NCBI GenBank assembly: GCA_016928115.1
Contig: JAFGLI010000019.1
Coordinates: 5,066 to 69,065, forward strand
DNA length: 64,000 nucleotides
DNA from: Candidatus Woesearchaeota archaeon
GTDB lineage: Archaea > Nanobdellota > Nanobdellia > Woesearchaeales > UBA9642
Reading direction: 5' to 3'
This document shows positions 411-63,298 of the stretch, piece by piece. Positions within the stretch are counted from its first letter, which is position 1. Each line of letters starts with the position of its first letter. The notes beneath the pieces were generated by a model. That model was not told the origin of the DNA and ran no database searches. It saw nothing but the letters and a program-made list of their open reading frames with translations. The position numbers were made by a program, and so were the translations under genes.

Positions 411-3400
411 ATGGGTTTTTCATTAAAGCCTGTTTTAACAGGAAAACATTTAAAAACCAAAACTGTTTTTTATTTCCTTATGGTAGATTTCAGAAAGACA
501 GAAAAAAAATGGCAGGATAAATGGGATAAGAAGAAATTATTTCAGGTTAAGAAAGACAAAAACAAAAAAAAGTACTATGTTCTCGTAATGTTCCCCTACC
601 CATCAGGCTCCGGACTGCACATGGGTCATGCATTTAATTATATTGTGGGAGACATAATAGCAAGATACAAAAAAATGCAGGGCTTTAATGTTCTGCATCC
701 TATGGGATATGACTCTTTAGGGTTACCTGCAGAAAATGCAGCCATTAAGCAAAAAGAGCATCCGGGGAAATACTCAGAAAAGGCTATTAAAAATTTTATG
801 GACCAGCAGAAATCCTTAGGTATAAGCTATGACTGGTCAAGAACTGTTGAGACTCATTCTCCTGAATACTATAAATGGGACCAGTGGATTTTCCTCAAGA
901 TGCTTGAAAAAGGCCTTGCTTATCAGAAAGAGTCTTCAGTAAACTGGTGCCCTGAATGCAAAACAGTATTGGCAAATGAGCAGGTTCATGACGGAAAATG
1001 CTGGAGGCATGAAGACACAAATGTTGAGATAAAACAACTAAAGCAATGGTTCTTAAGGATAACTGATTATGCTGATGAATTATATGAAAGTATTGACTCA
1101 TTGAAAGGGTGGCCTGAAAGGACAAAAGCAATGCAGAAGAACTGGATTGGAAAAAGCCACGGAACTGAGATTGATTTTGAGATTGAAAATCCAAATAAGA
1201 AAAAAGAAATTAGTAATGTTGTAATTATTCATGGTTCTCCTCATAGTAAAAAACGAGCAAAAGAAGAACCTCAAAATAAGGCTCATTGGATTTCATGGTT
1301 GAAAAAAGAATTAGAAAAACAAGAGATAAAAGTATACAATCCTTTAATGCCTAATTGTTGGAAACCAAAATATGAAGAATGGAAAAAAGAATTTGAAAAA
1401 ATTAACATTAATGAAGATAGTGTTTTAATTGGACATAGTGCAGGAGGAGCTTTTGTGGTTAGATGGTTAAAGGAAACCGGGAAAAAAATTAATAAATTAA
1501 TTTTAATATCTGCAGGGAAAACAACAACTAAGGAAAATAAAAGATTGCATAAATTTTACAGTTTTAATATTGGTGATAAAATCAAAAATAATGTGAAGGA
1601 AACTATTATTTTTATCTCAGATGACGAACCAGATTATAGGAAGAAAAATGCCATAGAATATGAAAAAAAATTAAATGGAAAATTAATCAGTTTGAAAAAC
1701 AGAGGACATTTCACTCTAAAAGGAATGAAAACAAAAGAATTCCCAGAACTTCTTGATGAAATTATTTCAAAAACAAAATTCCCAATATTCACAACACGCC
1801 CCGATACAATCTATGGAGTAACATTTATGGTTATATCTGCACAGCATCCAAAACTTGTTGATTTGATTACAAAAGAGCAGGAAAAAGAAGTTAAAGAATT
1901 CCTTAAAAAGCTTAAATCAGTAAGTGAAAAGGAAATGGAGGATATGGAAAAGGAAGGCGTCTTTACAGGCTCGTTCGCTGTCAATCCAATGACAAATGAA
2001 AAGATTCCTGTTTATGCAGGAAATTTTGTCCTTGCTGATTATGGCTCAGGAATGGTTATGGCTGTGCCTGCCCATGACCAAAGGGATTTTGAATTCGCCA
2101 AAAAATACAATATTCCTGTAAAGATAGTAATACAGCCTGATGCCTATGACATAAATCCTGAAAAAATGTCAAGGGCTTATACTGGAAACGGCAGAATGGT
2201 AAATTCAGGGGAATTCAATAATCTACCTAATAATATTGCAATTGATGAAATCACCAAATACCTGATTAAGAAAAAATCAGGAAGAAAAACAATACAGTAT
2301 AAACTAAAAGACTGGTGCATATCAAGACAAAGATATTGGGGAACTCCCATACCAGTAATATACTGTGATAAATGCGGGATTGTTCCTGTAGCTGAAAAAG
2401 ACCTGCCTGTTAAGCTGCCTGAAAAAGTGAAATTCGGAAAAGGCAATCCTCTTGAAACAAATAAGGATTTTGTGAATGTAAAATGCCCCAGATGCAAAGG
2501 CAATGCAAAAAGGGAAACTGACACAATGGACACTTTTGTAAATTCATCATGGTATTTCTTAAGATACTGCGACCCTGAAAATAATAAAAAGATATTTGAT
2601 AAAGAAAAGGCAAAATACTGGATGCCTGTTGACCAATACATAGGCGGGGCAGAGCATGCATGCATGCACCTTATTTATTTCAGGTTTTACAACAAATTCC
2701 TGAGGGACATTGGCCTTGTTGATGTAGATGAGCCTGCAGTTAATCTGTTCCACCAGGGAATGCTTCATGGTCCGGATGGAAAGGTTATGTCCAAAAGCAG
2801 GGGCAATGTTGTGCTGCCGAAAGAGGTTTCTGAAAAATACGGCATAGATACAGCAAGATTGTTTCTTGTCTCAATAGGCTCTCCTGACAAAGACAGGGAA
2901 TGGAATGAAAAAGGAATCCGGAGCAGCCTTAAGTTCATTGAGAAAGTGTATGATTTTGTAAAAAAATTTAAAGAAAATAAGTCATCACCAATTATTGAAT
3001 CAAAGCTGCATAAAGCCATAAAGACTGTCAGCCAGGATATAGAGAATTTCAGGTATAATCTTGCTGTAATAAAGCTGAGGAAATTATTTGAGGGCATTTG
3101 CGATGAAAAAAACATTACTAAAAAAGACCTTGAAATCTTCCTGAAAATGCTTGCGCCTTTCTGCCCGCATATATGCGAGGAATTATGGGAAAAACTTGGC
3201 AATAAAGGATTTATTTCAGAAGCAAAATGGCCCGGATATGATGATAAGAAAATAAATGAAAAAGCCCTGTACTCTGAGGAGCTTGTTGATAATGTAAGGA
3301 AAGATATTCTTGAGATTATCGGGCTGATTGGAAAAGATGAGAAAGGCATCTCAGAAATTACAATCTATATTGCAGATGAATGGAAATACGGATTATATAA

Positions 3401-3692
3401 AGAGATAAAAAAAGCTATGGAAAAGACACAGGACATAAACGAGATAATGAAAGCAGTGATGAAGACAGAATTCAGGAAATATGGGAAGTATATATCCAAA
3501 AACATGAAGACCATGGTTAACCAGATGCCCTCTATGGTAACTTCAGCAAAAGAGGAGAAAAAAGTGCTTGAAAATTCAGCTGAAAAAATCACTGACTTTA
3601 AATGCAGTGTTATTATAAAGTATGAAAAGGAAGCAGGCGAAAAAGCAAACAAAAGGGCACTGCCCGGGAAGCCTGCAATTGTCATTGAATAA
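411..3692 (+). CDS. leuS: Leucyl-tRNA synthetase, bacterial-type, with an inserted alpha/beta-hydrolase domain. An alternative start at 480 (MVDFRKTEKKWQDKW) matches canonical LeuRS N-termini.
   Basis: HMGH (HIGH-class) motif 'PYPSGSGLHMGHAFNY', 'GYDSLGLPAEN', 'TTRPDT' entry to the CP1 editing domain, 'AVPAHDQRDFEFAKKY', KMSKS as 'VMSKSRGNVV', and a C-terminal anticodon-binding region. About 190 aa are inserted between 'IDFEIEN' and 'TTRPDT'. Confidence 0.9.
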   Translation: MGFSLKPVLTGKHLKTKTVFYFLMVDFRKTEKKWQDKWDKKKLFQVKKDKNKKKYYVLVMFPYPSGSGLHMGHAFNYIVGDIIARYKKMQGFNVLHPMGYDSLGLPAENAAIKQKEHPGKYSEKAIKNFMDQQKSLGISYDWSRTVETHSPEYYKWDQWIFLKMLEKGLAYQKESSVNWCPECKTVLANEQVHDGKCWRHEDTNVEIKQLKQWFLRITDYADELYESIDSLKGWPERTKAMQKNWIGKSHGTEIDFEIENPNKKKEISNVVIIHGSPHSKKRAKEEPQNKAHWISWLKKELEKQEIKVYNPLMPNCWKPKYEEWKKEFEKININEDSVLIGHSAGGAFVVRWLKETGKKINKLILISAGKTTTKENKRLHKFYSFNIGDKIKNNVKETIIFISDDEPDYRKKNAIEYEKKLNGKLISLKNRGHFTLKGMKTKEFPELLDEIISKTKFPIFTTRPDTIYGVTFMVISAQHPKLVDLITKEQEKEVKEFLKKLKSVSEKEMEDMEKEGVFTGSFAVNPMTNEKIPVYAGNFVLADYGSGMVMAVPAHDQRDFEFAKKYNIPVKIVIQPDAYDINPEKMSRAYTGNGRMVNSGEFNNLPNNIAIDEITKYLIKKKSGRKTIQYKLKDWCISRQRYWGTPIPVIYCDKCGIVPVAEKDLPVKLPEKVKFGKGNPLETNKDFVNVKCPRCKGNAKRETDTMDTFVNSSWYFLRYCDPENNKKIFDKEKAKYWMPVDQYIGGAEHACMHLIYFRFYNKFLRDIGLVDVDEPAVNLFHQGMLHGPDGKVMSKSRGNVVLPKEVSEKYGIDTARLFLVSIGSPDKDREWNEKGIRSSLKFIEKVYDFVKKFKENKSSPIIESKLHKAIKTVSQDIENFRYNLAVIKLRKLFEGICDEKNITKKDLEIFLKMLAPFCPHICEELWEKLGNKGFISEAKWPGYDDKKINEKALYSEELVDNVRKDILEIIGLIGKDEKGISEITIYIADEWKYGLYKEIKKAMEKTQDINEIMKAVMKTEFRKYGKYISKNMKTMVNQMPSMVTSAKEEKKVLENSAEKITDFKCSVIIKYEKEAGEKANKRALPGKPAIVIE

Positions 3693-4226: not shown

Positions 4227-5261
4227 TTACTCATAAAAAAATTCTTTTAGATGTGGGTTTTCTTTTTTTAATATCTTCAATGATTTATATCTAAGCTGAT
4301 TTGCCCTTTCTCTTGAGATGTTAAATAATATTCCTATTTCTTCCAGAGTGTGTTGATTTTTCCCGTTTAAACCATAATAAAACTCAAGAATCTTTCTGTC
4401 TCTTCCATTATATTCTCCTCTTGATTCCAGTTTATCAAGGGCTTTTGAAAGTTCATCATGAAGCCTTTTTTTCCTGTAATCATCTTCAGGCATACTTTCT
4501 TCAACAGGAATAAGCTCGCTCCTTTCATCTCCTTCTTCATTAAAGGGGGATGATTCATCGAGTGAAACAAATTCTGTGAATGCCGCTTTCAGGGTATATT
4601 TGCTGTATCTTAAATCAAGCATTTCATTGATCTCATCAAGAGTGGGCTTATAGCCATACTTATTTATAAACTTCTTCTCTGCTTTTTTAACTAAACTTAT
4701 AGAATATGAAAGATTAGCAGGCATCCTGATTGTTCCAATCATTTCAGATATGTGCCTGTAAATACCTGATTTTAACCAAAAATCAGCATATGAAATAAAT
4801 TTTATCTCCTTGTATTTATTCTTATCCCTGAATTCTTTACAGTAATACTTTTCTGCAGCTGTTAAAACCTTCTCTAATCCTGCCTGTATCAAGTCTTCCT
4901 CCTGCAAGGACTCGTCTGGATTGAATTTGAAATAAATATCTCTTGCTGATTTTATGAAAAAAGGAATATTGCGGCTTACGAGTATGTTCTTTGATAATGC
5001 CTTTATATATTCTTTTGGAACATTTCCGTTTTCTGCTTTTTCCTCAAGTCCGATTTTTTCAAGAACTGAAAGCCCGGGGATTTTTTTAATGGCTGTTTTA
5101 AGATTAGTATATCTTCCAGGATTATCCCTTATGTAAGCTAACTTAATTTCCTCTTTTGGCTCCAATAGCTTCACATCTTTAAGATTGCCGTCCTTGAAAT
5201 CCTTAGGAACTAAAATATTTGATACCATTTTTATATAATCTTTACTATTAAAAAGTAACAA
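4227..5261 (-). CDS. Sigma-70 family RNA polymerase sigma factor homologue
   Basis: Region 2 'EEDLIQAGLEKVLTAAEKY...IKFISYADFWLKSGIYRHISEMIGTIRMPANL' resembles DLIQEGNIGLMKAVEKF...FSTYATWWIRQAITRAI...IRIP. Region 3 'KPTLDEINEML'. Region 4.2 'TLEEIGILFNISRERANQLRYKSLKILKK' resembles TLEEVG..F.VTRERIRQIE.KALRKLR. It has no TFB-like zinc ribbon or cyclin folds. Confidence 0.75.
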   Translation of the reverse strand: MLLFNSKDYIKMVSNILVPKDFKDGNLKDVKLLEPKEEIKLAYIRDNPGRYTNLKTAIKKIPGLSVLEKIGLEEKAENGNVPKEYIKALSKNILVSRNIPFFIKSARDIYFKFNPDESLQEEDLIQAGLEKVLTAAEKYYCKEFRDKNKYKEIKFISYADFWLKSGIYRHISEMIGTIRMPANLSYSISLVKKAEKKFINKYGYKPTLDEINEMLDLRYSKYTLKAAFTEFVSLDESSPFNEEGDERSELIPVEESMPEDDYRKKRLHDELSKALDKLESRGEYNGRDRKILEFYYGLNGKNQHTLEEIGILFNISRERANQLRYKSLKILKKENPHLKEFFYE

Positions 5262-5333: not shown

Positions 5334-6131
5334 ATGAGAATAAAACTAAAATTTACAAAATCTCTGGAGGAAAACGCATCATATTATTTTGAAAAGTCTA
5401 AAAGGGCAAAACAGAAATTAGAGAAAACCAAGAAAGCAGTGAGGGATACAAAGAAAAAGCTGGAAAATGCAGAGAAGATTACGAGTGAAGAGATAAAAGA
5501 GGAAAAGAAGAAAAAGAAACTGAAGAAAGTCATAAAAAAGAAAAAATGGTACCAGAATTTCAGGTGGTTCATGTCATCAGACGGCTTTCTTGTTGTGGGT
5601 GGAAGGGATGCAACATCAAATGAGATTATTGTAAAGAAGCATGCATCCGGAAATGACATTGTATTTCATACACAAATGGCAGGAAGCCCTTTTGTTGTAA
5701 TAAAAAATCCTTTAAATAAAGACATTCCTGATTCCACAATACAGCAGGCTGCTGATTTCTGTGTAAGCTTCAGCAGGGCATTTGACGAGGGACTGCAGAC
5801 TTCAGAGGTCTATTATGTAAAGCCCGAGCAGCTTTCCAGGAAAACCAAAGCAGGAGAATATATGGGAAAAGGCGCATTCATGGTATACGGCAAGAGAAAC
5901 TACACAGAAGGGAGGCTTAATGTTGCTGTTGGAAATTACAATGGAACCACTATGTCCGGGCCTGTTGAGGCAGTTGAAAAACACTGCAAAAAATATGTCG
6001 TCCTTAAAAAAGGAAAAGAGAAAAAAAGCGAGCTTGCAAAGAAGATAAGGCATTTATTGGAATTAGATGACCTGGATGAAATAATAAGGTTTATACCAAA
6101 AGAGGCTGAGATTGAAGAAGTAAAAAAATAA
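5334..6131 (+). CDS. C-terminal half of an NFACT/Rqc2-FbpA family protein, with a coiled coil and the NFACT-R/DUF814 domain
   Basis: Lys/Glu-rich coiled coil, then 'WYQNFRWFMSSDGFLVVGGRDATSNEIIVKKHASGNDIVFHTQMAGSPFVV...EVYYVKPEQLSRKTKAGEYMGKGAFMVYGKRNY', typical of DUF814. Confidence 0.7.
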   Translation: MRIKLKFTKSLEENASYYFEKSKRAKQKLEKTKKAVRDTKKKLENAEKITSEEIKEEKKKKKLKKVIKKKKWYQNFRWFMSSDGFLVVGGRDATSNEIIVKKHASGNDIVFHTQMAGSPFVVIKNPLNKDIPDSTIQQAADFCVSFSRAFDEGLQTSEVYYVKPEQLSRKTKAGEYMGKGAFMVYGKRNYTEGRLNVAVGNYNGTTMSGPVEAVEKHCKKYVVLKKGKEKKSELAKKIRHLLELDDLDEIIRFIPKEAEIEEVKK

Positions 6132-22172: not shown

Positions 22173-22799
22173 CTAATTCTTTAAGCTATCCTCACTTAAA
22201 CCCCTGCCAACTGCTTTTGAGATTATCTTAAAATATTCTTCTCCGCCATGTAAAATAAGATTGTTCCTTGCTGTCTCTTTGCCGTAATTCTCTTCATTAT
22301 TCAGCAGCATTTCCAGAAACTCTTTTTGCTTAAAAACATAAATGTGTATAAACGGAATGCTAATTTCACACTTATGCCTCAATTCAGAGTATATTCTTTT
22401 TTTATTAAAAGAATCATCACATACAATAACCAAGTCAAGGTCTGATTTTTTAGTCTCTTTTCCCTTAACATAGCTTCCTGTAACCAAAGCAATAAAAAAC
22501 TCAGTAGGCATTTTCAGAAAAACATCCTCAATCTCATCAAAAGGAATATTCTTTCTTGAAAAAGCAATATGCTCTGCAATAAACCCAAGATAAGCAAAAC
22601 TCTTAACATTAAACTTTAACCAATACTGAAAAACATTCCCTATTTTGTTCCTTCTCAAAATACCTTTATCCAAGAGCCTCTTTATCCTGCTGTAAACATA
22701 ACTTCTTGAGCTATATCCTTTCATAATGTCCTGAAAGCCAAAACCTTTCCAGGGCTCTTCAATAAAACATTTCAGTAATTTATATTCTTGCTTTAGCAT
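22173..22799 (-). CDS. Nucleotidyltransferase (MNT-type, Pol-beta superfamily) with an N-terminal wHTH
   Basis: 'GSYVKGKETKKSDLDLVIVCDD' is a GS...D.D nucleotidyltransferase motif; the N-terminal 'SRSYVYSRIKRLLDKGIL' is wHTH-like. Confidence 0.6.
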   Translation of the reverse strand: MLKQEYKLLKCFIEEPWKGFGFQDIMKGYSSRSYVYSRIKRLLDKGILRRNKIGNVFQYWLKFNVKSFAYLGFIAEHIAFSRKNIPFDEIEDVFLKMPTEFFIALVTGSYVKGKETKKSDLDLVIVCDDSFNKKRIYSELRHKCEISIPFIHIYVFKQKEFLEMLLNNEENYGKETARNNLILHGGEEYFKIISKAVGRGLSEDSLKN

Positions 22800-22846
22800 T
22801 TTAATACCTATTTTTAGATATAATCCTTCCTATATTTAGGAAATAT

Positions 22847-23320
22847 TTAAATCTTTCTATTTACTTTAAAAATATTAGAAACAAATGTTCTGGCATTTTT
22901 AAGAGAATCTTCTGCAGGCTTCTTATTTGCCTGAGGAATGGTCTTATAAGTAAAGTGCCCTCTTTTCCATTTTTCTTTTTTGAAAATTTCCAGCAGCTCA
23001 TCAGCCCTTAATATTAATTTATTGTAAATATTTAACAATCCTAAATCGAGCTCTCCACTATCAACAAGAAATTTCTTAAAATTCTCATATGTTTTTCTGT
23101 GAATTTCGGGAGCCTTTGTTTCTATTCCTTTATTCAGAAGAATAGATTTGGCAGCATAAAAAATAGCATAATAAGAATGGGAAATAACTGAACTGTAAAA
23201 TGTTGTATTCTCAGGGATATTAAATACCTCTTTATAGTTTTCACTTAATTTTTTCAAACATTCTGCAGTTATAATCTCATTATCTGCCCTGTCCAGATAA
23301 ATTCTTGCTTTTGGTTTCAT
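22847..23320 (-). CDS. HEPN-domain protein, partner of the MNT
   Basis: 'ISHSYYAIFYAAKSILLNKGIETKAPEIHRKTYENF' fits the HEPN fold signature (hayyA..ha.kAlL...g......H); the gene is immediately upstream of the MNT gene. Confidence 0.5.
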   Translation of the reverse strand: MKPKARIYLDRADNEIITAECLKKLSENYKEVFNIPENTTFYSSVISHSYYAIFYAAKSILLNKGIETKAPEIHRKTYENFKKFLVDSGELDLGLLNIYNKLILRADELLEIFKKEKWKRGHFTYKTIPQANKKPAEDSLKNARTFVSNIFKVNRKI

Positions 23321-48656: not shown

Positions 48657-49184
48657 ATGAATAATTTAGAAGAGATTCTGGATGATGTAGTTATAAACGG
48701 CTTTCCTGAATTTATGGATGAAGATATCTGGATAGAATATAAATCAATTAAAAAAAGTCTTCTTAAATCAGGAGAATTAACAGACGAAGGTTTTTATATT
48801 GAAGTTGATAATTTATTAAAAGATACCTCTGCTAATGTGATAATGGGTGGGGTGGCTCATGAACTTGCCCATTTAGTAACAGAAAGGAACTTAAGCAAAT
48901 ATTCTTCCAAAAAAGATGGACTTCATTATAAAAGATCAAAAAGATATAAAACTCTTGACGAAAGAGATACTGATTTAAGAGCAATTCTAAGGGGTTATGG
49001 TCCACATCTGTTAGAGTTTATGAAATATTCTAAAGAAAAAGGATTCCCTTATTATAAAAAAGACGGCCTTTCTATAAACGAAATTAAGACTTTATTAAAA
49101 ATTAAACCCCATAAGAATTTATTTTCACCATTTATCCTACTTTACAGAAAATTACGAACAAAAAATAAATCTTTTATTATTTAA
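48657..49184 (+). CDS. Putative Zn-dependent metallopeptidase (HExxH)
   Basis: 'MGGVAHELAHLVTERN' holds the only convincing motif, an HExxH. Confidence 0.4.
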   Translation: MNNLEEILDDVVINGFPEFMDEDIWIEYKSIKKSLLKSGELTDEGFYIEVDNLLKDTSANVIMGGVAHELAHLVTERNLSKYSSKKDGLHYKRSKRYKTLDERDTDLRAILRGYGPHLLEFMKYSKEKGFPYYKKDGLSINEIKTLLKIKPHKNLFSPFILLYRKLRTKNKSFII

Positions 49185-60400: not shown

Positions 60401-60688
60401 TCAGTCCTCGCTTTTTGGTCTCCATTTATATACTTCATCATGGTGGCCATAAAAATATATATCCACTTTTTCTTCAGAATGGTCTATTTTGAAAATTAAC
60501 ACAAAGTGTTTATCTATATGAACTCTATTAAATGTTTGTAAGGGTTTTCTTAAGAATTTGTAATTGTGTTTAGGATTGGATCTTATCTCTCTAATTTTCT
60601 TATCAATAATTTTAAGATGGTTTAAATTTTTCTTTGCTAATTTATGAAAAATCTTATCCGCTTCTGGCTTAATGTCAAGAAAATACAT
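60401..60688 (-). CDS. RelE/ParE-like toxin
   Basis: 'KFLRKPLQTFNRVHIDKHFVLIFKIDHSEEKVDIYFYGHHDEVY' fits the RelE-fold C-terminus. Confidence 0.55.
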   Translation of the reverse strand: MYFLDIKPEADKIFHKLAKKNLNHLKIIDKKIREIRSNPKHNYKFLRKPLQTFNRVHIDKHFVLIFKIDHSEEKVDIYFYGHHDEVYKWRPKSED

Positions 60689-61037: not shown

Positions 61038-62159
61038 ATGAAAAACCAGATAAGTTCTCTTGAACTGAATTATTTGACAAGGGAGTTAAAAACACTTGTT
61101 AATTCAAAACTGAATAAGGTTTACAGCAAAAAAAACAGTTTTGTTTTTGACTTCCATAAAACCAGTAAAGGAAGATTAATGTTAAAGGTTGAGCTTCCGG
61201 GAAAAATATACCTCACAAAATACAAGGAAGAATATGAAGAGCCCGGTAATTTCTGCATGTTCCTGAGAAAACATTTAGCCAACAGTTTTGTCAGGGATAT
61301 TTATACAAAGGATTTTGAGAGAATCCTGATAATTGAGTTTAAAACAAAAGAAAAAAAACTAAAACTCATATTTGAACTGTTCAGCAAAGGCAATATTGTT
61401 CTGGTTGATGATAAAGGCATTATAAAAAATATATACAGGAAAGAGGAATGGAAAGATAGAATATTAAAGCCAAAGGAAAAATACAAATTCCCTCCTTCGG
61501 GCATTAACATAATCAATATGGATATGAATGAGTTCAGGATAAAAATCATGAAAAGCAATAAGGATTTAGTAAGGACCCTGGCTGTAAAATTTTCACTCGG
61601 AGGGCTTTACAGTGAAGAAGTTTGTGTAAGGACTAAAACTAAAAAAGGAATTAATACAAGCATACTGAAAAAAAATGAACTGTTAAAACTATATAAAACA
61701 ATAAAATCAATGCTTAACAGCAAAGAAGACCCCACGGCTTATTTTGAAGATGGAAAATTAAAAGAGATAACACCTTTTGAATTAAGAATGTTCCAAAATC
61801 TTGAAAAGAAAAAATACAGCTCATTTAATGAATCCCTTGATGAAAGCCTTTCAATAATGGCTGAAGAAAAGAATGAAGAGGAAATAATAAAGACCAAAAA
61901 GGGAAAGGTAGAAAAATTAAAAGAGATTATTGAAAAACAAAAAGAGGACATAAATAAAAGGTTAAATATTATTGATGAAAACTCAAAAAAAGGGGAGATA
62001 TTATACAAAAACTACAATATGCTTAAGCAATTACTGGATGATTTCAGAAAGATACAAAAAGAGCATTCATGGGAAGAGATTAAAGAAAAACTTAAAAACC
62101 ATAAAATCATAAAGGAAATAAATGAAAAAGAAGGGTACATAATTGTTGATGTAAAATAA
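61038..62159 (+). CDS. N-terminal half of an NFACT/Rqc2-FbpA family protein (NFACT-N plus HhH plus coiled coil)
   Basis: 'FCMFLRKHLANSFVRDIYTKDFERILIIEF...LIFELFSKGNIVLVDDKG' is the NFACT-N signature; it ends in a coiled coil with no DUF814 domain. Confidence 0.7.
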   Translation: MKNQISSLELNYLTRELKTLVNSKLNKVYSKKNSFVFDFHKTSKGRLMLKVELPGKIYLTKYKEEYEEPGNFCMFLRKHLANSFVRDIYTKDFERILIIEFKTKEKKLKLIFELFSKGNIVLVDDKGIIKNIYRKEEWKDRILKPKEKYKFPPSGINIINMDMNEFRIKIMKSNKDLVRTLAVKFSLGGLYSEEVCVRTKTKKGINTSILKKNELLKLYKTIKSMLNSKEDPTAYFEDGKLKEITPFELRMFQNLEKKKYSSFNESLDESLSIMAEEKNEEEIIKTKKGKVEKLKEIIEKQKEDINKRLNIIDENSKKGEILYKNYNMLKQLLDDFRKIQKEHSWEEIKEKLKNHKIIKEINEKEGYIIVDVK

Positions 62160-62160
62160 A

Positions 62161-62664
62161 ATGACTCTGAAAAAAACTAAAAAGAAAAAAAGCAGATTGA
62201 ACAAAAAGATTGTTTATGCAGTGGTTATAGCTTTCATATTGATTGCAGGATTTTTCATGATTGAAAAACAGCTGATTCTGAAATGCAGATTTGAGATTGA
62301 AAATGTTTTTGTGGATGTTGAAAGCTCGCAGTGGTCCCATGCAACTGCACTGCCCATGGATATAACTATGAAGGTAAATAATCCCTCACCATTGCCGAGA
62401 TACCTTATTAAAATGGATTATGAGCTTTATGCTGATAATGAATTATTATCCCGGGGAGTATTTTCAGACAATATAAGAATAAGACCTAATGAAAAAGAAG
62501 AGCTGAGGGCAACAATGTTCCTGGATTTCAATTATTTCTCACCTGAATTATTAAACTCTATAGCAAATAATCAAGCAGAATACAGCATAAAGATAAAGCC
62601 TTATTTTGACAGTTTATTTGGAAGGACTGGTTATGAGCTTTTTGCTGTTAAGAAAAAACAATAA
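62161..62664 (+). CDS. Membrane-anchored LEA_2/WHy-like domain protein
   Basis: N-terminal TM helix; 'NPSPLPRYLIKMDYELYADNELLSRG' resembles the LEA14/NDR1 fold pattern. Confidence 0.4.
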   Translation: MTLKKTKKKKSRLNKKIVYAVVIAFILIAGFFMIEKQLILKCRFEIENVFVDVESSQWSHATALPMDITMKVNNPSPLPRYLIKMDYELYADNELLSRGVFSDNIRIRPNEKEELRATMFLDFNYFSPELLNSIANNQAEYSIKIKPYFDSLFGRTGYELFAVKKKQ

Positions 62665-62707
62665 AAACCTTTTTAAACAAATATAGGTTTCTTTCTCTAT
62701 ATAATAT

Positions 62708-62780
62708 GGCGGTAGTAGTTCAATGGTCAGAATAGAAGACTGTGGATCTTCAGAAGCGGGTCCGATTCCCGTCTACCGCC
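62708..62780 (+). tRNA. tRNA-His (anticodon GTG) with a genomically encoded G-1 and discriminator C73; no encoded CCA
   Basis: Folded by hand: 7-bp acceptor (ggcggtag.../...ctaccgc), the extra 5' G pairing with C73, D-arm with G18G19, anticodon stem gaaga/tcttc with loop cTGTGga, 4-nt variable loop, T-arm gcggg/cccgt. Confidence 0.8.
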
Positions 62781-62788
62781 TTTTTTAT
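62781..62788 (+). terminator. Oligo-T tract directly after tRNA-His
   Basis: ttttttat immediately 3' of the tRNA; archaeal Pol III/Pol II terminate at T-runs. Confidence 0.4.
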
Positions 62789-62858
62789 AATAAGGGCTTG
62801 ACGAACGAAGTGAGGAAACCCTTGGTTTTTACGAGATTTTTCTCAAAAATCTCTGCAT

Positions 62859-62875
62859 GATTCCCGTCTACCGCC
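62859..62875 (+). repeat. 17-bp direct repeat of the tRNA-His 3' end (gattcccgtctaccgcc), an att-site-like duplication
   Basis: Identical to 62764..62780; separated by 78 bp. Confidence 0.6.
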
Positions 62876-62902
62876 CTCAAACAATTAAAATGGGTTAATA
62901 AA

Positions 62903-63298
62903 ATGGAAATAACCAATCAGGATTTGATTGAAAAGGCAAAGCAGGCAGCTAAATTGCATAAATCATCAGAAGATGTTAGAATAGGTGATGTTGGCTGTGC
63001 ATTAATTACTGATAAAAATAATGTCTATGTTGGGGTAAGCATTGATGCCTGCTGTGGAGTAGGATTTTGTGCTGAACATAGCGCTATTGCCAGCATGGTA
63101 ACCAATCAGGAATATAATATAAAAAAAATTGTGGCTGTTCTTGGTAATGGGACAATTTTACCCCCTTGTGGAAGATGCAGAGAACTAATGTATCAAATCA
63201 ATGACAAAAACTTAGACGCAAAGATAATCATTGAAAAAAATAAAATAGTCAAACTTAGTGATTTGCTTCCTGAGATTTGGCAAAAGAAAATTCATTAA
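62903..63298 (+). CDS. cdd: Cytidine deaminase
   Basis: 'CAEHSAIASMV' (C/H-A-E) and 'PCGRCRELM' (PCxxC); about 131 aa, the typical homotetrameric Cdd size. Confidence 0.75.
   Translation: MEITNQDLIEKAKQAAKLHKSSEDVRIGDVGCALITDKNNVYVGVSIDACCGVGFCAEHSAIASMVTNQEYNIKKIVAVLGNGTILPPCGRCRELMYQINDKNLDAKIIIEKNKIVKLSDLLPEIWQKKIH

Follow-up and report, generated by a model that had tools for sequence, protein, structure and literature searches.

The DNA analysed here, called the window, is a stretch of 64,000 nucleotides from a Woesearchaeota archaeon. Its sole tRNA gene encodes tRNA-His(GTG) on the + strand (62708..62780), within the gene order NFACT_N, LEA_2 protein, tRNA-His, cytidine deaminase (cda), and PAN-like AAA ATPase. 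The tRNA assignment, made in the initial annotation from the letters alone, is borne out: both ARAGORN and Rfam RF00005 (63.2 bits) recognize tRNA-His, and 71 of the 73 positions are identical to the tRNA-His of a related lineage represented by contig L145. The gene encodes G-1 (62708), C55 in the T-loop, and discriminator C73. Immediately upstream, the region 62665..62707 (+) forms the left end of a module common to L145, with 88% identity (37/42 aligned positions). Its position and AT-rich, TATA-like sequence suggest a promoter.

That annotation also called the tRNA unusual on three grounds, one of which stands. C55 (window 62762; L145:371) is common to the window, its Logan assembly, and L145; T55 is present in the seven other Woesearchaeota tRNA-His genes compared, so that the T-loop reads TTCGATT in 7/7 relatives vs TCCGATT in the window. 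Indeed, C55 is the sole T-loop mismatch to the Rfam RF00005 consensus. Position 55 of tRNA is almost always U (pseudouridine 55), and the lineage-specific C55 may interest tRNA biologists. The other two grounds fall away: 7/7 relatives also have an encoded G-1 and a 4-nt variable region, so these features are ordinary in the group. The lineage with C55 also has one additional D-loop base.

The 3' end of the gene, GATTCCCGTCTACCGCC, recurs downstream on the same strand without a mismatch (17/17). Copy 1 (62764..62780, +), an attL-like core, spans tRNA positions 57-73, from within the T-loop to the discriminator; copy 2 (62859..62875, +), an attR-like core, is a displaced tRNA-His 3' fragment. 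As first described, the copies are separated by exactly 78 nt (62781-62858). The borders of identity are abrupt: at the left, GATT is preceded by tcc in copy 1 and by cat in copy 2; at the right, CGCC is followed by tttttt in copy 1 and by ctcaaa in copy 2. These sharp borders, together with the unrelated DNA between the copies, exclude a tandem duplication. Chance likewise is ruled out, as the 17-mer repeat recurred in none of 100 dinucleotide shuffles. A search for additional copies, one of the checks proposed at the outset, found none with ≤2 mismatches in the 64-kb window besides the two.

Both copies, the spacer, and the tRNA with its C55 reappear in Logan contigs from SRR13394437. Two of these contigs meet within the spacer, where they overlap by 21 nt. 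This is fewer than k-1 = 30, so the break points to missing coverage rather than to a branching assembly graph, and it was rejected as a sign of an insert variant.

The 78-nt spacer (62781..62858, +), presumed to be the remnant of an integrated element, contains no ORF, matches no Rfam family, and has no second copy in the window; it is 77% identical to its L145 counterpart. It opens with TTTTTTATAATAAG (62781..62794, +), a T-run plus 8 nt that is identical to L145 at 14 of 14 positions; the T-run itself (TTTTTT) is likely the tRNA terminator. Even with E values as high as 10 allowed, an Rfam search of spacer and copy 2 together returned only tRNA and otherwise noise below 17 bits. An archaeal non-canonical tRNA intron or a split tRNA was considered and rejected: copy 1 already completes the tRNA (63 bits) and is followed by the T6 run, and no bulge-helix-bulge could be built by eye from the two junctions. 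An exact 17-nt match to CTTTTTTATAATAAGGG (the last tRNA base plus the start of the spacer) lies inside an ORF at 49046-49062 (-); it was judged probably a low-complexity, AT-rich chance match.

The only part of the spacer that folds significantly is a perfect 9-bp hairpin, GAGATTTTT-ctc-AAAAATCTC (62833..62853, +; z = -4.2), followed by TGCAT (62854-62858), which abuts copy 2. The global fold of spacer plus copy 2 is not significant against shuffles in either the window (z = -0.56) or L145 (z = -1.03). Beyond copy 2, a flank that starts CTC (CTCAAAC; 62876..62902, +) leads to cda; at 47% identity to L145, this flank shows no homology. A mini-ORF at 62857-62898, whose ATG overlaps the left border of copy 2, encodes MIPVYRPQTIKMG and a stop (13 aa). 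In L145, a mini-ORF on the minus strand from about 231 encodes MISVYRLF and a stop (8 aa). The mini-ORF at the copy 2 border is probably meaningless.

The cda gene (62903..63298, +; Pfam PF00383, E = 4e-11) belongs to the context, outside the scar, and its protein is 100% identical to that of an NCBI Candidatus Woesearchaeota MAG. In every lineage examined, cda is preceded, at a distance of 3-95 nt, by the 3' end or a fragment of a tRNA, and the tRNA differs: the His fragment in the window; an intron-containing Leu, by eye only, at L089:6290-6550; Leu-CAG at L090:2041-2195; an intron-containing Gly-like tRNA at L091:1286-1401 (Rfam 50.5 bits); a decayed Leu 3' fragment at L162-L164:1-175; and a tRNA at the contig edge, with no type called, at L165:1-119. 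L162-164 are three independent assemblies, and each of them stops at precisely 175 nt before cda. The right-hand neighbour of cda is likewise a different gene in each lineage where one was called (PAN, ASCH, GT2, PIG-L, Trp_repressor). The probable tRNA-Leu of L089 (6280-6512), with an intron of roughly 150 nt running from GCGGGGATGCCGGAGTGGCCAAA to GGGTTCGAGTCCTACTCCCCGCA, was missed by ARAGORN and by the Rfam gathering threshold.

Elsewhere in the window, NFACT apparently is split into two genes about 55 kb apart: NFACT_N (61038-62159, 373 aa) and the RNA-binding NFACT-R_1 (5334-6131, 265 aa). Leucyl-tRNA synthetase (411-3692, 1093 aa) carries an inserted serine-hydrolase or alpha-beta-hydrolase-like domain (Pfam Ser_hydrolase, residues 289-437, E = 2e-13) between the match to the catalytic core and that to the editing domain. 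At 22173-23320 (-) and 60401-60688 (-) are a nucleotidyltransferase/HEPN gene pair resembling a toxin-antitoxin system and a weak match to a HigB-like toxin (E = 0.0015).

A related lineage with the same module

The related contig was found by way of the gene to the left of the tRNA. LEA_2 homologues led to L143 and L144, and thereby to gene X, whose closest full-length relative lies on L145. That contig carries LEA_2, with 72% amino-acid identity to the window protein. Its order, in window orientation, is: LEA_2; X, on the opposite strand; the homologous promoter; tRNA-His with C55; TTTTTTATAATAAG; a spacer of ~125 nt; a hairpin and CTGCAT; copy 2, in the form GATTTCAGTTTACCGCC; TTTTTTAATAAG; and an unrelated gene, Z. 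The contig extends only 211 nt past copy 2.

Gene X, which encodes an alpha/beta-hydrolase of about 271 aa, sits between LEA_2 and tRNA-His in L145 (L145:519-1334). It is convergent with LEA_2 and follows it in L143 (98% nucleotide identity; 1017-1565) and in L144 (81%; 4629-4754). The window has the tRNA there, and X is absent from the LEA_2/tRNA-His junction (about 62650-62665). The presence of X in L143, L144, and L145 indicates that the window lost about 0.9-1 kb beside the tRNA promoter very recently. The LEA_2 C-terminus differs in line with the loss of X. Distant X homologues were considered as sources of extra copies of the module, and none has an adjacent tRNA-His.

By alignment, homology between the window and L145 begins at about 62657 and ends exactly at 62875, the last base of copy 2, with none beyond. 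The genes that follow differ, cda in the window vs Z in L145. Because homology ends there and different genes follow, the 3' border of copy 2 was a recombination junction; because the two lineages share the module of tRNA, spacer, and second copy, that module predates their split.

Identity varies along the module: 97% in the tRNA; 88% in the promoter; 77% in the alignable columns of the spacer (72% without the invariant first 14 nt), which in addition has a 37-nt and a 9-nt indel; and 14/17 in copy 2. For reference, third codon positions of LEA_2 are 69% identical and the non-homologous flanks 44-47%. The spacer value, seen beside that of the third codon positions, suggests that the spacer and copy 2 drift at about a neutral rate. 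Within L145, copy 2 matches its own tRNA at 15/17 positions. A scar that is shared by a related lineage, and whose second copy is decaying there, is old.

Two observations fit this simple picture less well. First, both L145 copies have an identical C-to-T change; this would not be expected from simple neutral decay and hints at something beyond drift. Second, the hairpin pairing is kept through two double changes (GAGAT/ATCTC in the window vs GAAGT/ACTTC in L145), a hint of some constraint. The L145 hairpin, GAAGTTTTT/AAAAACTTC, occupies the corresponding place with two pairs changed on both sides, has a 12-nt loop, and is followed by CTGCAT as in the window. Explanations that invoke no selection could account for both: self-templated correction of a palindrome, for the hairpin; and gene conversion between the copies, for the common C-to-T. 

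Might the spacer and copy 2 instead be functional? They could form a small RNA or cis-acting leader whose 3' end resembles that of a tRNA, a signal by which the mRNA downstream is processed, or the short upstream ORF noted above (62857-62898). The architecture is kept in two lineages, as are the nine hairpin pairs through compensatory change, CTGCAT, and the first 14 nt; moreover, the cda homologues are always closely preceded by the 3' end of a tRNA or by a tRNA fragment. Against this stand the near-neutral divergence with its large indels, and the two changes in L145 copy 2 relative to its own tRNA. The global folds are not significant, that of L145 loses the hairpin, and no Rfam family matches. 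Of the acceptor and T stems, copy 2 contributes the 3' strands alone, and the spacer holds no partner strand. Finally, the downstream gene differs between the two lineages; the mini-ORF differs in both length and sequence; and the tRNA fragment upstream of cda is visibly decayed in L162-164. A function for the spacer and copy 2 therefore appears very improbable.

The surroundings of copy 2 bear more directly on its origin. After C73, all seven relatives have C-T-N, which resembles the flank of copy 2 (CTC) and is unlike that of copy 1 (TTT). In L145, TTTTTTAATAAG after copy 2 resembles the sequence that follows copy 1. This fits either a longer, 31-nt block of att identity or a tandem second integration. 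The surroundings of L145 copy 2 look attP-like, with a right arm, a core, and left-arm-like sequence; these surroundings and the break in synteny at the core border both fit recombination within the core.

The same extension can be read in another way. A duplicate made without a mobile element, whether a second tRNA-His in tandem or a copied segment with the 3' end and the terminator, could have lost its 5' part and left a pseudogene fragment of 17-31 nt. A plain segmental copy would extend into the terminator region, as the L145 repeat does (the core plus TTTTTTA(T)AATAAG). Small indels and deletions are frequent at the locus, including the loss of X in the window and the two indels of the spacer, and integrase, attP, and element DNA were found nowhere searched. 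Yet in both lineages the DNA before copy 2 bears no resemblance to the first 56 nt of the tRNA, and tandem tRNA-His genes occur at none of the seven other Woesearchaeota loci. Furthermore, a fragment that is cut at T-loop position 56/57 and follows the intact gene in direct orientation is the classic integrase signature (PMC9897764). Duplication of this kind is unlikely, if the likeliest of the rivals to an integrase-made scar.

Searches for integrase, attP and insert-bearing variants

Integration would be demonstrated most directly by an integrase, an attP site, a variant carrying the insert, or an empty syntenic site, and each was sought. Pfam scans of the 48 ORFs across the 64-kb window revealed only housekeeping or unknown proteins, with no integrase, recombinase, transposase, or Cas1. 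No integrase gene lies between or beside the repeats. This is expected for a relic, yet it removes direct proof. No insert-carrying variant was seen in accessible data, and the Logan assembly from SRR13394437 contains the short form only.

The core was then sought in larger collections. IMG/VR was queried with the core in exact and in degenerate form and with both arm/core junction patterns. None gave a relevant match: all nine degenerate-core hits lie in contigs of 47-68% GC, vs the AT-rich archaeal DNA of the window. JGI metagenomes were queried with D (a non-C base) plus the 17-mer, a pattern that excludes real tRNAs. All 51 non-tRNA hits lie in DNA of 45-74% GC, none in AT-rich DNA, and they were set aside as chance matches. 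Across the collections, the GC-rich contigs with non-tRNA core hits are mostly bacterial. In sum, no attP or other non-tRNA copy of the core was found in AT-rich DNA of IMG/VR, JGI metagenomes, or GTDB genomes, and PLSDB contains no plasmid that matches the module or its 78-nt spacer.

Among GTDB species representatives, the 17-mer gave 86 hits, nearly all of them single matches in unrelated, mostly bacterial genomes. Seven are tRNA-His genes of Woesearchaeota or Nanoarchaeota, and the archaeal hits are all genuine tRNA-His. Each of these seven relatives has the 17-mer once, with no second core copy (≤4 mismatches) in the 5.5-8 kb around its tRNA-His. Their loci are not syntenic with the window. 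The only syntenic relative, L145, carries both copies, so no syntenic empty site was recovered; the sequence of L143 ends before tRNA-His. The closest cda homologues were rejected as a source of such a site, as other tRNAs lie upstream of theirs. The idea that cda itself forms an att-bounded cassette also failed, since in L089-L091 and L001 the DNA downstream of cda contains no repeat of a tRNA fragment.

Gene Z, after L145 copy 2, has no significant relative in Pfam, PHROGs, exact-cluster lookup, phage tblastn, or IMG/VR. Its best hit, to a PHROG integrase family, has E = 0.2 and was dismissed as noise.

These results bear on a second suggestion of the initial annotation, that the site is still used for integration and excision. 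In its fullest form, copy 2 would be a live attachment site in a tandem att landing pad for uncharacterised DPANN integrative elements: occupied in L145 (P arm, core, P'-like arm, element gene Z) and empty in the window. Such a site would account for the homology break exactly at the 3' end of copy 2, for the P'-arm-like TTTTTTAATAAG and unrelated gene that follow it in L145, and for the perfect copy 2 (17/17) in the window; in addition, a strain with 98% nucleotide identity (L143) differs structurally right beside tRNA-His. However, Z resembles no integrase, viral, or plasmid protein; no attP-like copy exists in the collections searched; the Logan assembly contains only the short form, its break being a coverage gap; and the L145 contig stops too soon after copy 2 (211 nt) for an element to be visible. 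With no insert variant, attP, or integrase, present-day use of the site is unsupported, and we regard it as improbable.

A broader version, which we hold to be speculative and doubtful, would make the 3' ends of Woesearchaeota tRNAs active recombination platforms. Copy 2 then would serve integrative DPANN elements of a family not yet described as a second, live attachment site, occupied in L145 and empty in the window. If true, the same machinery would explain why each lineage examined has another tRNA or tRNA fragment immediately before its single cda gene.

Transposition offers no better account. Insertion of a transposon, MITE, or casposon, with duplication of the target site, was rejected: the ends of the spacer, read from the sequence (TTTTTTATAATAAG... 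vs ...AAATCTCTGCAT), are not inverted repeats, and neither a transposase nor Cas1 was found among the window ORFs scanned.

Proposed origin and comparable systems

The reading that we favour, with somewhat better than even confidence, is that the locus is an old, inherited, att-type relic of integration into the 3' end of tRNA-His, no longer active. The presence of one complete and one partial tRNA copy is a routine product of element integration in archaea (PMC9897764; PMC3293823). The anatomy here is the textbook product of such an event: a direct repeat of the tRNA 3' part, with one copy in the intact gene and the other displaced downstream. Moreover, the border of the repeat is a junction of both homology and synteny, as the window and L145 cease to be homologous right after the final base of copy 2.

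This suggests the following course of events. An element whose attP core matched tRNA positions 57-73, and possibly 14 nt beyond, would have recombined with tRNA-His, presumably through an integrase. Recombination would have restored an intact tRNA at one border (copy 1, the attL side), while the 3' fragment that the gene first had would have been displaced downstream (copy 2, the attR side). Later deletion of nearly the whole element would have left 78 bp in the window genome and about 125 bp in the L145 lineage. The remnant and copy 2 now drift at about the neutral rate.

Several findings weigh against a relic. The repeat, at 17 bp, is short relative to typical archaeal att repeats of about 40-50 bp (44 bp in PYG1). 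The hairpin pairing and the matching C-to-T in both L145 copies have been noted. The searches yielded no integrase in the 48 window ORFs, no attP in AT-rich DNA, no plasmid match, and no syntenic empty site. The locus works like an att scar, and its membership in the class is unproven, as the searches recovered no integrase gene, attP, or empty syntenic site.

The proposal in the initial annotation that the repeats mark the remnant of an element thus survives as the best explanation, in view of the tRNA 3' fragment, its direct orientation, its sharp borders, and the synteny junction; that an integrase made the repeats is inferred. That annotation also named findings that would count against a scar: the lack of any insert-bearing variant, together with a second copy that belongs to a conserved functional element. 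No such variant was found. Copy 2 is indeed kept in place in one relative, but it is decaying there, which is not how a functional element behaves.

Most likely, the locus is the eroding footprint of a mobile element, a common, ordinary kind of genomic scar. The mobile elements of Woesearchaeota (DPANN archaea) are poorly known, and the locus is one of few hints of tRNA-targeted site-specific integration in this group. It also marks tRNA-His, and tRNA 3' ends generally, as rearrangement junctions in these small genomes. In annotation, the proper label for copy 2 is tRNA fragment or att relic rather than gene.

Casposon target-site duplications are 14-15 bp in length. Like casposon and transposon target-site duplications at tRNA 3' ends, the window contains a short direct repeat of host sequence; unlike them, the ends of its spacer are not mutual inverted repeats, and no Cas1 or transposase was found.

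Closer parallels involve displaced pieces of tRNA genes. In Caldiarchaeum (Sugahara et al. 2012, PMC3293823), inserted DNA likewise stands between a tRNA fragment and the functional gene, and close relatives differ from one another at the locus. There, however, the displaced fragment is from the 5' end, the 1.8-kb insert encodes a recombinase, and introns have been gained; the window tRNA is intact, with no intron and no recombinase. The non-canonical tRNA-like remnants described by van der Gulik et al. (2023, PMC9897764) share with the window a partial tRNA beside its complete parent gene, non-functional and decaying. The window fragment, at 17 nt, is too short for tRNA finders, and so, unlike those remnants, it is not annotated as a spurious tRNA.

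The closest match is to the attL/attR repeats made by tyrosine integrases, as in Pyrococcus yayanosii PYG1 at tRNA-Gln, the pTN3/TKV-type elements of Thermococcales, and the SSV/pNOB8-type elements of Sulfolobales. As in the window, an intact tRNA is accompanied by a displaced 3' fragment, in direct orientation downstream. The borders are sharp, the DNA between the copies is unrelated, and the fragment runs from inside the T-loop to the 3' end of the tRNA. The differences are of scale, content, and host: 78 bp between the repeats vs the usual 9-23 kb; a repeat of 17 bp, perhaps 31 bp ancestrally, vs about 44-48 bp; neither integrase nor cargo; and a DPANN archaeon as host, a group for which the collections searched hold no described element. 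The locus is a minimal case of a well-known kind: its repeats, at 17 bp, are unusually short, and hardly any of the insert is left.
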